Shown here: positions 1 through 5,065 of the stretch, one piece after another
Layout of the letters: each line of letters begins with the position of its first letter
How positions within the stretch are numbered: the stretch's first letter is position 1
Source: a virus
Lineage: Duplodnaviria > Heunggongvirae > Uroviricota > Caudoviricetes
Reading direction: 5' to 3' (one strand)
Length of the DNA: 5,065 nt
IMG/VR virus record: IMGVR_UViG_2693429605_000002
Notes under the pieces: generated by a model
Database searches by the model: none
The model's input: the letters and a program-made list of their open reading frames with translations, nothing else
Told to the model about the DNA's origin: nothing
Program-made: the position numbers and the translations under genes

Positions 1-2390
1 CCACCATAAACATCACCTTGATTGGTAAGCAGCAGGTAAGTTTTAGCGCCATCATTACGCCATAATGCCCCATACTCCCCACCTATCATTCGAATCTGAT
101 TACCACCACGCGCTACAATTTCGTCTGTGGCAAAAAGTTTTTTGCACGACAAGTTATCGTTAACGATTAACGAATGAGACTCATAAAAACCACGCCCACT
201 CTTAAAATCAAGGATAACGTCCGCCGCGATACATTCAGTCGCCGGATTTGTTGCCCCAAACTTATAGGTCGTATCATTAACAACGAGATCAGCACCAGGT
301 GCGGATATTGACAGGCCATCTTCGATAAACGCAAAAACAGGGAAAGCAGCGCCATCAACATAGAACACAGAGCGCAAATCATCGCCCTTATTACTCATCA
401 TTATTGAGTGGATGGCTCGTTCATTGTTTTGATATTGCCAGAACATTCCATAAGCATAACGCCCCCTGTCAGTCCAGCCACCAGGCATAACAAATCCGTT
501 AAACTCGCAGTTATTCATCGGATCGCCTGCGGTTCGCGTTGCCGTGGTGATAATGACCCTTGATGCCAGTTCGCTTACTGAGCCAGCAGAACGCATAACA
601 ACAACAGGGTAATATTTTCCAGATGTTGCACCTGCAGGAGCGTTAACCCGCACATAACGCATACCACGCTTATCAGCAAAGTCTGTTTTACTGACCGCGT
701 TAATGTTGTTCAGGAAGCGTCCCTTATCGGGTATATCAGCGCCGTTCTGGTCTTTCTGCAGACGTTTCTCTGCATTGTTATAGGCTGATTTTACTGCCTT
801 TGGCGTTGCCGCCAGCGTTTCAGACGTGCTGTTGGTCGCGCTGCTTAGCTGGATTATCCCTTTCTGTGCTGTCGTTGCATCCTGTGCGGTGTATTTCCCG
901 TTAGCCAGGTCATACGCGGCCTTAACGGCTTTTGGCGTTGCCGCCAGTGACTCGGAAGTGCTGTTGGTCGCACTGCTGAGCTGTACTATCCCCTTTTTCG
1001 TCGTGCTCGCATCCTCAAGCGCCACGGCGGATGCAATATCCTCTGCCCGTTTTGCCGCTGTCTCAGCGCGCGTTGCCGCGGATTCCGCCGTACTTTTGCT
1101 CTGAGCTGCTGCCGTCGCACTGCCAGCTGCCTCTGTCGCCTTCGTGGATGCCGTCGTGGCGCTACCCTTCGCTGCTGACGCCTGTCTGGTCGCTTCATCT
1201 TTTGAAGCAGACGCAGATGATGCCGATGACGACGCCGAACTGGCTGACGATGCGGCAGCCGTTTTTGAGGATTCTGCGCTGGTTTCCGACGCTTTCGCGT
1301 TCGTTTCGGATGTCTTCGCTGCGGAAGCAGACCTCGCTGCTGCGCTGGCCTGTTCAGTGGCTTCGCCAGCCTTCGTTGTGGCTGTTGAAGCAGACGATGC
1401 GGCGCTTTCTGCCGATTTTCCGGCGGCGCTAGCACTGGCTGAGGCCTGCCCGGCACTTGTTGACGCTGCACTGGCAGACGACGCAGCCGCTGTTTTTGAG
1501 CCTGCCGCAGCCGAGGCGCTCTGTCCCGCTGCCGTTTCAGAAGACCTGGCGTTCGTCTCTGACGTTTTTGCCGCCTTCGCGGAATTTCCTGCCGCTGTTG
1601 CCGAGGAAGCTGCGCTACTGGCGCTCGAGGATGCGTTCGTTTCTGATGATTTTGCCGCCTCTTTTGAAGCCGCCGCATCCCGGGCTGAGGTGGCAGCTTC
1701 TGACGCTTTCGTAGTCGCGGTGGATGCAGAAGTGGCTGCTGATTGTTGTGACGCTGCAGCATTAGTTTCTGACGTTTTTGCGGCACTGGCACTGGTAGCT
1801 GCCGCGCTTTTTGAGGACTCTGCAGCGGCAGCACTTTTTGATGCTTCAGTGGCCTTTGTTGATGCCGTTCCTGCGCTGGAAGTCGCTGACTGAGCCGACG
1901 ACGCGGCCTGTCCGGCTGACGTGCTGGCTGCGCGTGCTGAGCCTGCAGCATCAGTCGCATGGGTTGCCGCCTCACGGGCTGATGTGCTGGCATCACTGGC
2001 TGACTTCTTCGCGGCTGCCGTGTTCTGTGCCACCACGGACGCGTTACGCGCCACCTCTTCCACCATCAGCTCAAAACGGCGCAGTGCCTCCGGACGGGCA
2101 TCATCCTCCGTCATGGCACCGAGAAAATCATTCAGCGTACCGGGTCGGGAATCTTCATACACTGTGATGGTCCCGGCATGTGACGGCGGGAATCCTTCCA
2201 CCAACAGAATAACGCTGTACTGACCGTACTCAACGTCCATACTGTAACGCCCGGCTTCATCCGGATTTTCAGATGCCAGCGTGTTCACCACCACCGTGGT
2301 ACTGTTACGTTTTGCTTTCAGCTGGATTGTGCAGTTCTGTACCGGTTTTCCTGTGCCGTCTTTCAGTACACCTGAAATCTTTACTGCCAT
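1..2390 (-). CDS. stf: Side tail fibre protein Stf, N-terminal 796 codons; 3' end and stop lie beyond the window start
   Basis: Not in the ORF track. Hand translation from ATG (complement of 2388..2390) down to position 3 gives 796 codons with no stop: MAVKISGVLKDGTGKPVQNCTIQLKAKRNSTTVVVNTLASENPDEAGRYSMDVEYGQYSVILLVEGFPPSHAGTITVYEDSRPGTLNDFLGAMTEDDARPEALRRFELMVEEVARNASVVAQ..., then an Ala/Ser/Thr-rich region, two GI(V/I)QLSSATNSTSE(S/T)LAATPKAVK fibre-repeat motifs, and a distal region ending ...GGEYGALWRNDGAKTYLLLTNQGDVYGG at the window edge. The first ~110 residues match lambda Stf as I remember it almost residue for residue. A GGGGTGA Shine-Dalgarno sits 2 nt upstream of the ATG. Confidence 0.88.
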   Translation of the reverse strand, partial: MAVKISGVLKDGTGKPVQNCTIQLKAKRNSTTVVVNTLASENPDEAGRYSMDVEYGQYSVILLVEGFPPSHAGTITVYEDSRPGTLNDFLGAMTEDDARPEALRRFELMVEEVARNASVVAQNTAAAKKSASDASTSAREAATHATDAAGSARAASTSAGQAASSAQSATSSAGTASTKATEASKSAAAAESSKSAAATSASAAKTSETNAAASQQSAATSASTATTKASEAATSARDAAASKEAAKSSETNASSSASSAASSATAAGNSAKAAKTSETNARSSETAAGQSASAAAGSKTAAASSASAASTSAGQASASASAAGKSAESAASSASTATTKAGEATEQASAAARSASAAKTSETNAKASETSAESSKTAAASSASSASSSASSASASKDEATRQASAAKGSATTASTKATEAAGSATAAAQSKSTAESAATRAETAAKRAEDIASAVALEDASTTKKGIVQLSSATNSTSESLAATPKAVKAAYDLANGKYTAQDATTAQKGIIQLSSATNSTSETLAATPKAVKSAYNNAEKRLQKDQNGADIPDKGRFLNNINAVSKTDFADKRGMRYVRVNAPAGATSGKYYPVVVMRSAGSVSELASRVIITTATRTAGDPMNNCEFNGFVMPGGWTDRGRYAYGMFWQYQNNERAIHSIMMSNKGDDLRSVFYVDGAAFPVFAFIEDGLSISAPGADLVVNDTTYKFGATNPATECIAADVILDFKSGRGFYESHSLIVNDNLSCKKLFATDEIVARGGNQIRMIGGEYGALWRNDGAKTYLLLTNQGDVYG
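780..998 (-). repeat. Two copies of the conserved phage tail-fibre repeat motif within stf, 135 bp apart
   Basis: Copy A (998..912) encodes KKGIVQLSSATNSTSESLAATPKAVKAAY; copy B (863..780) encodes KGIIQLSSATNSTSETLAATPKAVKSAY. The DNA copies differ mainly at synonymous third positions. I recall this motif as a widely shared tail-fibre repeat found in lambda Stf and related fibres. Confidence 0.7.
1020..2030 (-). repeat. Ala/Ser/Thr-rich low-complexity, internally repetitive coding region of stf (fibre shaft)
   Basis: About 340 codons dominated by GCN/TCN/ACN codons. The motif (A/K)K(T/S)SETNA recurs four times (coding on minus strand near 1779, 1653, 1569 and 1319), with related SAA/ASS/TKA(T/S)EA blocks between. 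The composition is so biased that other frames and the antisense strand also stay open here (track ORFs 1144..1893 + and 986..1996 -). Confidence 0.65.
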
Positions 2391-2454: not shown

Positions 2455-3054
2455 TCAGAACTTATAACCAACAGCCACGATGAACCCGTCAGTGCGCCAG
2501 TCACCACTGCCGGAGCCTTCATAAGCGACATCAATGGCCACGGATTCGGTCGGGTTAAACTGCACGCCAGCTCCCCACGCCAGAGACGTGTTGCTGTGGC
2601 GACCGTCATCACTTCCGGTCAGCACATCGTGCTTTTTCCCCTTGTTGTCAGTTACGCGGAGATAATCCCCGGAGAAAGTCGACACACGGCTGTAAGCCAT
2701 ACCCGCCATCGCATACGCGCTGAACCATTCATTCACGCGCACAGACGGCCCCGCCATCACGCTGAACCAGCGATTACGCACGGAATCCTCATGCCAGCGG
2801 GTATCGCTGTAATGCGTTTTTTGCTCATCTTCAGCGTTGGCATAACTGAATGACGTAATCAGCCCCAGCGTGTCCGTAAACTCATAACGGTATTTCACGT
2901 TAATCCCGTTCAGTTCATCGCTGCCAGGAACGTTCGTCGAGACATGAAGATACCCCGCGCTCAGCGTTGACTGATGTTCAGACGCCCATGCAGGCGCACC
3001 GGATACGGCCAGACAAATGGCTGCGGACAAAATGGCGGCATAAAGTTTACGCAT
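2455..3054 (-). CDS. lom: Lom outer-membrane protein, Ail/Lom/PagC/OmpX-family small beta-barrel (199 aa), lysogenic-conversion moron
   Basis: Complete ORF in the track. ATG is the complement of 3052..3054 and is preceded by a GAGAGG Shine-Dalgarno; stop TGA is the complement of 2455..2457. N-terminus MRKLYAAILSAAICLAVSGAPAWA has the n/h/c layout of a Sec signal peptide with an AxA cleavage site. The C-terminus ...YEGSGSGDWRTDGFIVAVGYKF ends in Phe, the typical outer-membrane beta-barrel signal, and closely matches the lambda Lom C-terminus as I remember it. Alternating aromatic/hydrophobic residues fit an 8-strand barrel. Position between J and stf is as in lambda. Confidence 0.92.
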   Translation of the reverse strand: MRKLYAAILSAAICLAVSGAPAWASEHQSTLSAGYLHVSTNVPGSDELNGINVKYRYEFTDTLGLITSFSYANAEDEQKTHYSDTRWHEDSVRNRWFSVMAGPSVRVNEWFSAYAMAGMAYSRVSTFSGDYLRVTDNKGKKHDVLTGSDDGRHSNTSLAWGAGVQFNPTESVAIDVAYEGSGSGDWRTDGFIVAVGYKF

Positions 3055-3121: not shown

Positions 3122-5065
3122 TCAGCTGATACTGATGCCTGCGGTGGCTTTCTTCATCACCACAACCAGCAAATCGCTGATACTTGCTGTGGGATACCAG
3201 TTATTCACCAGCCATGCTGATACCGAAAACTCCAGCGTCATGTGACCGTGACCGGCAGGCATATCAATAACGCCACTGTAAATCAGCGTATTATCCAGCG
3301 CGGTACGGTTATAAATTTCAGCACCGTTTTTCCGCACTATCAGACGGCATGAGGAGTAAATATCAGTATGCTCTCTCTCATGCTTAGCGCCACTGAATGC
3401 CACCGCCGGAATAACAATCTGCCGGTCAAACGGCTGATCGTCATAAACCCTGACGGTAATGGTCCCTGATGGCCACCGCTCCGGTGCACGGGAGTCACGG
3501 GGGAAAGCTTTGCCCACTGTTTTAACGAGATCGCCTTCAATCTGGTTCGCGGACAGTTTTCCCAGAACCCGGCAGTTCTCGTTAATCGTGACGTTGTTGA
3601 GCGTCCCGGAGTTCGCATTCACGTTACCGCTAATATCGGCATTTTTCGCCGTCAGCCGCCCGTCCGGTGTCAGGGAAAATGCCGGAGGATTACCGCCGCT
3701 GGTAATGGTGGGAGCCGTCAGATATTTCAGGAACACGTCGTTCATGAATATCTGATCGCCCTGACCAACAAACATCGGCTTTGTGTTGCCATTCGCAGGA
3801 TTAATCATCGCAATCCTGTCCGCCGCCAGCAGCACCTGACTCTGCATACCGTCAGGGGTATTCTCAATACCGGCACCAATACCCGCGATATAAAGGCGTC
3901 CGTCCTGCATCTGCTGCAGCTTCACAGCCCACATGCTGTTCAGGTTATTATTTGTATCAACCTGAACCTTCTGTATCTGCTGGATCGCTGCACTCTGGTC
4001 TTCCAGTTTCTTATTGACGGTCTGCGTGATTTCATTACTGACATCCGTGATGGACGTTCTGATTTCCGCCAGGTCAGGCGCAAGCTGACCGTTATCAATC
4101 TGAGTCCACAACTCCTGAGCCAGATGGGTTTTCCCTATCTCTCCTTTGAAAAAATCCAGATAGCCGGATGCATCATCACTCGGCTGGCCAACAGCCTCCA
4201 CAAATGCCGATTTGCCAACGGTGTTCACACTGCGGATATAAAAGTAATAATCATGGCCCGGTTTGATATTGATACTGGCGGCTATCCAGTACAGCCCCGT
4301 GCCAAGGTAGCGGGCTGTGGTTTCAACCTGCCTGATATCGGTAATCCGCGTTTCCGAAAACCAGAACTCAAACTGTACCGTCGGGTCATACACCGCAAGA
4401 CGCGGGACCGCTGTTATCTGAAAATAGCCCGGTGTCAGCTCAATCTGTGACGGCGCTGCCGGTGCGGCAATCAGGAACGATACCGACGCCGGATCGCCCT
4501 GCTGTCCCCGGGCATTTACCGCCCGGACTGTCAGCGTGTAACGCCCCAGCGCCAGTTGTGTGAAGCGGTATGTGGTTTCTGCCGTCCGGGCTGTGCTGAC
4601 CAGCCGCTCACTGCCGTCATCCGCTGCCACGGTCAGGCGAAGCATGAAACTCACGCCCTTCACCACCTTCGGCGTGTCCCATCGCGCCAGCACCTGATAT
4701 TCCCCGCTGTCTGCGGTGACTTCGGCAGTCAGGTGCTGCACTGCTGGCGGCGTGACACCATTCACCGTGCCGCTCTGGTCGCCGTCAAAGTGCGCCCCGT
4801 TATCCACGATGGCTTCTTTTTCCGGTACATGCTGCACGGCGGTGATGGCATACGTGCCGTCGTCGTTCTCACGGATACTCACGCAGCGGAACAGGCGCTG
4901 GCGCAGCGTCGGCAGCTTCAGCCCCCACACGCTGTATCCGGCAACGCCGTCAGGAACACGGCTCACTTTTACCTTCACGCCGTCGGTGACGGACTGGACC
5001 TCCACGCTGACCGGATTGCCACTTCCGTCAACCAGGCTTATCAGCGTGGTACCGGAGGATGGCAG
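3122..5065 (-). CDS. J: Host-specificity / tail-tip attachment protein J, C-terminal part (647 codons plus stop); 5' end lies beyond the window end
   Basis: ORF track gives 3122..5005 (627 aa) beginning at an internal GTG. Hand translation of 5065..5006 in the same frame reads [20 protein letters not shown] with no stop, so the gene continues upstream out of the window. Stop codon TGA is the complement of 3122..3124. Identification rests on position (directly upstream of lom and stf, 67-bp gap to lom), large size, and beta-rich composition with segments resembling fibronectin-III-like repeats (e.g. [32 protein letters not shown]); no database search was possible. Confidence 0.88.

Follow-up and report, generated by a model that had tools for sequence, protein, structure and literature searches.

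An StfR-type side tail fibre gene whose non-lambda segment is probably mid-fibre structure

Mosaic exchange among the tail fibre genes of phages lambda, Mu, P1, P2 and T4 has been known since the early 1990s (Haggard-Ljungquist et al. 1992 and Sandmeier 1994, both as cited in PMC3945230). We analysed one such gene, the side tail fibre gene stf that runs off one end of a 5,065-nucleotide (nt) stretch of caudovirus DNA (IMG/VR record IMGVR_UViG_2693429605_000002), referred to here as the window. A preliminary description had proposed that the part of Stf encoded at window 1–780 (residues 537–796, hereafter the segment) is a receptor-binding module swapped in from elsewhere and the most likely host-range determinant present. 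Our comparison leads to a different assignment. The gene is very probably a mosaic allele of lambda's side tail fibre gene, of the StfR type (Rac/Qin prophage), and the segment a structural piece of the mid-fibre rather than the receptor-binding end. The gene, the allele and the exchange principle were already known, and the segment is part of Escherichia coli K-12 StfR.

Lambda Stf provides the reference layout. It begins with StfN (residues 1–91) and a linker, continues through a proximal coiled coil (102–393), a hinge (394–422) and then the distal coiled coil (423–525), and closes with a gp37-like receptor-binding domain (PMC12617516). For alignments we used the 774-amino-acid (aa) Ur-lambda Stf, rebuilt from orf-401 and the upstream-open frame of orf-314 (NC_001416); its Gly/His/Ser-rich, gp37-like end is as the preliminary description had it. 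OmpC is the receptor for both lambda Stf and T4 gp37. Fibres of the T4/lambda receptor-binding family reportedly owe their specificity to a short unique stretch inside the last ~215 residues (PMC9659904). Ur-lambda Stf shares with the window protein the N-terminal collar domain, the Ala/Ser-rich proximal shaft and the first fibre repeat, and shares with the window's full-length relatives the collar, the His-rich gp37-like tip and Tfa. It differs in between, where its hinge and distal coiled coil (about 391–528) give way here to domains resembling Mu S, P1 S and gp34, about 456 residues in all.

StfR of the K-12 Rac prophage (b1372, 1,120 aa) occupies the same gene position, J/lom–stf–tfa, and has the same N-terminal domain, shaft and type of gp37-like tip. 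Two features set it apart: it lacks the second, 44-aa fibre repeat of the window allele, and the tip differs between residues 1046 and 1135, as read in a relative of the window, L008, a 79-kb contig of assembly GCA_001284125.1 that carries the same Lom. The stf genes of L008 and of E. coli PC-NDM34 (L005) adjoin a major facilitator superfamily transporter gene (ydfJ in L005) instead of lying at the Rac site, and tfaQ lies downstream in L005. In the literature searched, StfR served only as a recombination target or expression locus, and no functional study of the mid module came up.

Other fibres share single parts with Stf. Mu S (PDB 5yvq and 8ju3) matches twice, once through its residues 111–170 (63% identical to window residues 504–563) and again through 271–336 (45% identical to 757–822); in addition, residues 322–415 of the S/S′ fusion chain in 8ju3 correspond to 857–951 of full-length Stf. 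P1-type S fibres share an uncharacterised mid-fibre domain that we call domain b, 66% identical in a P1-like fibre. Mu and P1 differ from the Stf locus, which has neither a gix/cix DNA core nor an alternative inverted cassette; the Stf N-terminus is lambda-type rather than built for myovirus baseplate attachment, and its tip is gp37-type rather than ending in ‘...INGTWYNVA’. T4 gp34 (PDB 4uxe, 5nxf; PF21446) has one nodule in common with Stf and no other part; it is the proximal half-fibre of a four-protein fibre, whereas Stf is a single-chain fibre with the nodule at mid-length.

Domain order in full-length relatives

The window ends inside stf. It is the reverse complement of an entire 5,065-bp draft contig, CYDP01000063.1 (assembly GCA_001283505.1), so stf is interrupted by a break in the assembly, and the source assembly offers no way to extend it. 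The Stf frame (window:3-2390:-) translates to 796 residues starting MAVKISGVLKDG, and the two bases left over at position 1 (reverse complement GG) determine the final Gly. The preliminary description rightly called its domain incomplete at position 1, where the frame runs off the contig and cuts a gp34-like part, and the Stf peptide it quoted is exact in this minus-strand frame. The visible gene contains the following features.

1–2390, minus strand: stf (side tail fibre) coding sequence, 796 codons plus 2 nt, starting with the ATG at 2390 and truncated where the contig stops
1989–2390, minus strand: lambda-like N-terminal tail-attachment domain, residues 1–134 (PF08400 phage_tail_N, E 9.7e-72)
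1016–1988, minus strand: Ala/Ser-rich proximal shaft (a coiled coil in lambda), collinear with lambda Stf 135–390
909–1015, minus strand: Phage_fiber_2 repeat 1 (PF03406, best stretch residues 462–502; lambda alignment; DNA direct repeat)
777–883, minus strand: Phage_fiber_2 repeat 2, a Mu S-like extra copy of 44 aa (direct repeat, 76% DNA identity, 132 nt apart)
699–758, minus strand: junction motif QKDQNGADIPDKGRFLNNIN, homologous to Mu S up to the G-segment boundary (Mu S and PDB 5yvq/8ju3 alignments)
171–665, minus strand: domain b, a beta-rich mid-fibre domain with an invariant NNCEFNG motif, residues about 576–740
3–272, minus strand: N-terminal part of a T4 gp34/Mu S-type beta-helix and beta-prism nodule, cut by the contig end (PF21446 Gp34_trimer, residues 707–796)

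Relatives carry the gene to its end. L008 encodes a 1,176-aa Stf that is identical to the window protein at 796 of 796 visible positions, followed by a 193-aa Tfa, and served as proxy for the unreadable rest of the window stf; its accession suggests that its assembly comes from the same sequencing project as GCA_001283505.1. A full-length Stf in the closed PC-NDM34 genome is identical at 795 of the 796 visible residues, as is WP_071940856.1. The gene tfa, beyond the contig end in the window, follows stf in L008, PC-NDM34, strain D10 (L004), Kati, SE11 and K-12. Extension leftward to the stf stop and tfa, as the preliminary description had advised, is thus unavailable in the source contig, and both are found in the identical relative L008. 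From these sequences we infer that stf of the window genome continues as in its relatives. Full-length Stf runs 380 residues past the window's 796 and ends in a collar and a His/Gly/Ser-rich needle, giving this map.

Residues 1–134: lambda-type attachment domain (PDB 9e7m, aligned over 1–94)
Residues 135 to about 460: Ala/Ser-rich shaft (alignment to lambda)
Residues about 462–546: two fibre repeats (PF03406)
Residues 490–565: Mu S-like stretch (matches Mu S 97–172)
Residues about 576–740: domain b (core without a Pfam family)
Residues 750–821: gp34-like nodule (T4 gp34 1036–1106; PDB 4uxe, 5nxf, 9x3r)
Residues 857–951: Mu S/S′-like domain (8ju3 residues 322–415)
Residues 946–1176: collar and His-rich needle (T4 gp37 tip, PDB 2xgf, E 4.9e-86)

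On this map the segment, earlier called distal, is mid-protein in a chain of 1,176 residues. The gp37-like end, found in L008 and in every other full-length relative read, begins about 150 residues past the contig edge. Pfam places Collar at residues 951–998 of the full-length protein, and finds no Collar (PF07484), Phage_fiber (PF03335) or His-x-His needle repeats in the 796 visible residues. Collinearity with lambda resumes at residue 947 (lambda 529), and the final 230 residues share 71% identity with lambda Stf 529–774.

The other end is lambda-like as well. Residues 1–134 are identical to lambda Stf at 122 of 134 positions, and residues 1–94 match the lambda tail fibre structure PDB 9e7m (E 2e-51). 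Over the first 110 residues, said to match lambda almost exactly, the count is 101 of 110 (92%), which bears out the likeness and makes the wording slightly generous. The shaft and fibre repeats had also been called lambda-like; the shaft and repeat 1 are collinear with lambda, and repeat 2 is Mu S-like and absent from lambda. The shaft is ~105 aa longer than lambda's, through one insertion in the alignment.

Collinearity continues through the shaft and first fibre repeat and stops at residue 490 (window about 920), after ...TPKAVK. The non-lambda block therefore occupies window 1–920, starting ~140 nt further right than first described. Within it, residues 537–796 have no detectable similarity to lambda Stf by BLASTP (best E = 1.4), as the preliminary description had supposed for the region past the second repeat, and none was found to the lambda hinge and distal coiled coil (about 391–528). 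A full-length, high-identity alignment of the segment to lambda Stf, named beforehand as the outcome that would speak against an exchange, is absent. Module exchange is supported, with the lambda-like attachment end and shaft joined to non-lambda sequence at the position of the Mu S G-segment boundary. Since collinearity resumes in the tip, the lambda domain layout implies that the StfR-type block replaces the hinge and distal coiled coil, not the tip.

These comparisons give the build of the fibre. Its lambda-like part, residues 1–490, is made up of the domain for attachment at the collar, the long Ala/Ser-rich shaft and a single fibre repeat. Some 456 residues then stand in for lambda's 138-residue hinge and distal coiled coil, after which the fibre, as read in the relatives, returns to a lambda/T4 gp37-type collar and a His-rich needle, which would fold with the aid of Tfa and bear the receptor-contacting loops. 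The segment forms the first 260 residues of the replacement block, comprising the Mu S-like junction motif, domain b and the start of a beta-prism like P4 of gp34. As a trimer, this cassette would build a knee and a distal shaft that set the length, stiffness and geometry with which the Tfa-dependent gp37-type tip is presented to the outer-membrane receptor. A structural role for the segment is the most likely one, the knee and distal-shaft mechanism being drawn from homology and position; receptor recognition by the segment probably does not occur.

Shaft elements, tip variation and competing readings

The recognisable end of the segment belongs to a shaft. PF21446 matches the window protein with an E value of 3.7e-20 (73 bits against a cutoff of 27, truncated at the edge), and the full-length protein at residues 707–806 with 3.6e-27 (95.6 bits). 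The PDB-aligned gp34-like core starts at residue 750 (window 3–143), and residues 750–821 align to gp34 1036–1106 in PDB 4uxe, 5nxf and 9x3r (E 2e-11 for 4uxe); the match to Mu S 271–336 covers the same element. In gp34, beta-prism nodules punctuate the shaft and helix segments lie at 1014–1047 and 1105–1128, with the residue limits of P4 left unprinted (PMC5537660). By our own equation of P4 with the stretch between these helices, the matched part of gp34 comprises the end of the triple beta-helix and the P4 beta-prism. The matched gp34 region is a shaft beta-prism, not a terminal domain.

Domain b is a discrete, widely shared block. It contains many near-invariant aromatic and charged residues, and its homologues lie in P1-like, P2-like (57% identity), T4-like Aeromonas, T5-like, rV5-like, Dhillonvirus and other lambdoid fibres, so that six or more unrelated groups of phages have it in their tail fibres. 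Mu S has no counterpart by BLASTP. Pfam holds no family for the domain b core and NCBIfam none for domain b or the full protein, and PHROG profiles match it in the profile interior. When 1.84 billion representative proteins were scanned exhaustively with HMMER, just 133 clusters had domain b, and in every one of those hits more sequence follows; it is never C-terminal. The distal ends that come after it in other fibres of E. coli and Salmonella are of at least five unrelated kinds, which include Mu/P1-type ‘...INGTWYNVA’ ends, gp53-like domains and collar-type ends, among others. In a P1-like phage, domain b travels with the exchangeable host-range cassette, as its first, shaft-proximal element.

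Variation among alleles concentrates beyond the segment. In alignment, both the segment and the whole mid module (547–946) are 100% identical among K-12 StfR, SE11, Kati and PC-NDM34, whereas the tip stretch 1046–1135 is only 50% identical, with indels, between K-12 StfR and the others, between flanks that are identical. The tips were compared using K-12 StfR (L006:4050-7412) and PC-NDM34 (L005:6719-10246), the allele matching the window. Judged by this pattern in the sequence, residues 1046–1135 are likely to be the specificity-determining region. Complete E. coli genomes yield 1,371 records, commonly annotated stfR, with ≥99% identity to the segment. In about a quarter of these genomes (1,317 of 5,426), 80% or more of the segment is covered by a match, with up to five copies per genome, and six lambdoid phages that have been isolated carry the segment too (Kati, Chlobot, mEp332, PhiR34_1, 2H10 and ev099).

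Together, these observations bear on the proposal in which the segment is taken for the swapped module that binds the receptor and sets host range, which we regard as highly unlikely. The segment does lack similarity to lambda Stf, and it does start at the position homologous to the constant/variable boundary of Mu S, but about 380 residues follow it, ending in the gp37-type tip, and its sequence stays the same in alleles with different tips. Like many binding domains, domain b is rich in beta structure, and a homologous domain lies within an invertible segment of a P1-like phage; yet domain b is never C-terminal and stands upstream of many different tips, and the other recognisable element is the gp34 shaft beta-prism. 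Domain order in identical relatives largely refutes the proposal. Nor does an artefact explain the junction. The window is a whole contig ending inside stf, and a segment present in up to five copies per genome is a typical cause of assembly breaks, but the same continuous arrangement recurs at 97–100% identity across the junction in closed genomes and isolated phages, including K-12 MG1655. A chimeric or misjoined short contig has next to no probability, and the closed genomes refute it.

Several points weigh against a purely structural mid-fibre role. The 3′ end of stf is unreadable in the source assembly, and its continuation is taken from relatives that are identical or nearly so. Domain b reaches only 55–68% identity with its versions in other fibres, leaving room for functional divergence, and in the P1-like phage domain b lies in a fibre open reading frame (ORF) adjoining an invertase gene, which we took as the invertible segment. 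AF2 monomer models have low confidence (pLDDT 53 for a 375-aa homologue and 61 for domain b alone), and fold searches were uninformative, with weak matches that include carbohydrate-binding modules and tailspike domains. Those matches are one ground for viewing domain b as a lateral secondary binding domain, for instance for lipopolysaccharide or O-antigen sugars, that would give reversible adhesion along the shaft and contribute to host range. Further grounds are its discrete, mobile and beta-rich character, its invariant NNCEFNG and near-invariant aromatic and charged residues, and its presence in P1-, P2-, T4-, T5-, rV5-like and lambdoid fibres. We consider this quite unlikely. Likewise unlikely is that domain b, rather than being an inert shaft nodule, has a hitherto unrecognised role in lateral adhesion or in nucleating assembly and makes its own contribution to adsorption. 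For domain b, as for the rest of the segment, we infer a structural role.

Fibre repeats, junction and contig end

The junction coincides with a boundary familiar from other fibre genes. Lambda, K-12 StfR, SE11 and Kati each have a single fibre repeat, and the window's extra copy appears as a 44-residue gap in alignments to Kati and SE11. The Mu record puts the G-segment boundary (gixL) at S residue 170, where the junction homology ends. This position is the classic recombination point of tail-fibre genes. The protein homology across the constant/variable junction of Din-type cassettes (Mu G, P1 C, e14 P) is present in Stf.

A functional invertase crossover site at the junction was considered and rejected. 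The DNA there, TTCCTGAACAACATTAACGCGGTCAG, resembles only one gix half-site and lacks the AAACCnnGGTTT core. Allowing up to one mismatch, a scan for AAACCnnGGTTT gave no match in the window, PC-NDM34 (L005) or K-12 (L006), and recovered both Mu sites as positive control. A Pin-type DNA invertase gene (pinR in K-12 Rac) lies after tfa in Kati (L001:7592-8182) and K-12 Rac (L006:8085-8675). No alternative fibre cassette is annotated beside it in either, and no invertase is annotated in PC-NDM34 or L008. The Kati and K-12 Rac invertase looks like a relic of a former switchable system.

The contig end falls in a stretch of stf that is also broken elsewhere. It corresponds to L008 position 5298, and the right edge of a 599-bp deletion in the stf gene of another assembly, L009, lies 10 bp away, which suggests a repeat or recombination-prone spot common to several prophage stf copies. 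The L009 deletion breaks the frame at L009:2756 (L008:4710-5308; window about 1–590 side), takes out most of domain b and the gp34-like nodule, and leaves separate ORFs of 145 and 320 aa. In strain D10, too, stf is annotated as frameshifted; prophage fibres with this stf are often decaying. An exact 60-mer over the allele-specific Asn538 codon had no match among the genome contigs searched, and exact look-up found the identical Lom protein on three contigs.

Neighbouring genes and meaning for fibre annotation

Besides stf, the window holds two other genes of what is very probably a lambdoid prophage, in the order J, lom, stf and all on the minus strand.

3122–5065, minus strand: 3′ part of J (central tail fibre), including the C-terminal receptor-binding domain (Pfam Ig_J, Ig_J_second, Phage_Tail_Tip, Ig_GpJ_C)
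2455–3054, minus strand: lom (Ail/Lom outer-membrane protein), between J and stf (PF06316 Ail_Lom, E 7e-125)

J is the window's other candidate for host range. It is 70% identical overall to lambda J 513–1131, with 60-column blocks upstream of the C-terminus reaching 83–98% identity and one internal block at 10 of 60. Over the last ~150 aligned columns (Ig_GpJ_C, window 3122–3570, minus strand) identity falls to about 42%. With its C-terminal receptor-binding domain present in the window and diverged from lambda J, J is at least as good a host-range candidate as the segment, which the preliminary description had ranked first. The sequence divergence suggests that receptor specificity of the central fibre probably differs from lambda's LamB binding. 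Lom (199 aa) is 45% identical to lambda Lom and would be a different Ail/Lom family member in the same slot.

Additional reading frames in the window were set aside. A 249-aa ORF antisense to the Ala/Ser-rich shaft (window 1144–1893, plus strand), called as a 245-aa gene in source assemblies, parallels orf206b annotated in lambda; it is most likely a by-product of GC-rich, repetitive Ala/Ser codons and not a gene. Within 1–780, small ORFs occur on both strands; they fall within the stf frame and were taken to be chance. No RNA family of Rfam matched either strand of the whole window.

For annotation and fibre engineering, the non-lambda block of StfR-type fibres is to be read as shaft, with the specificity-bearing tip 250–380 residues further downstream. 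Where a short draft contig breaks off within stf, its last visible part can pass for a ‘new distal domain’ without being distal.

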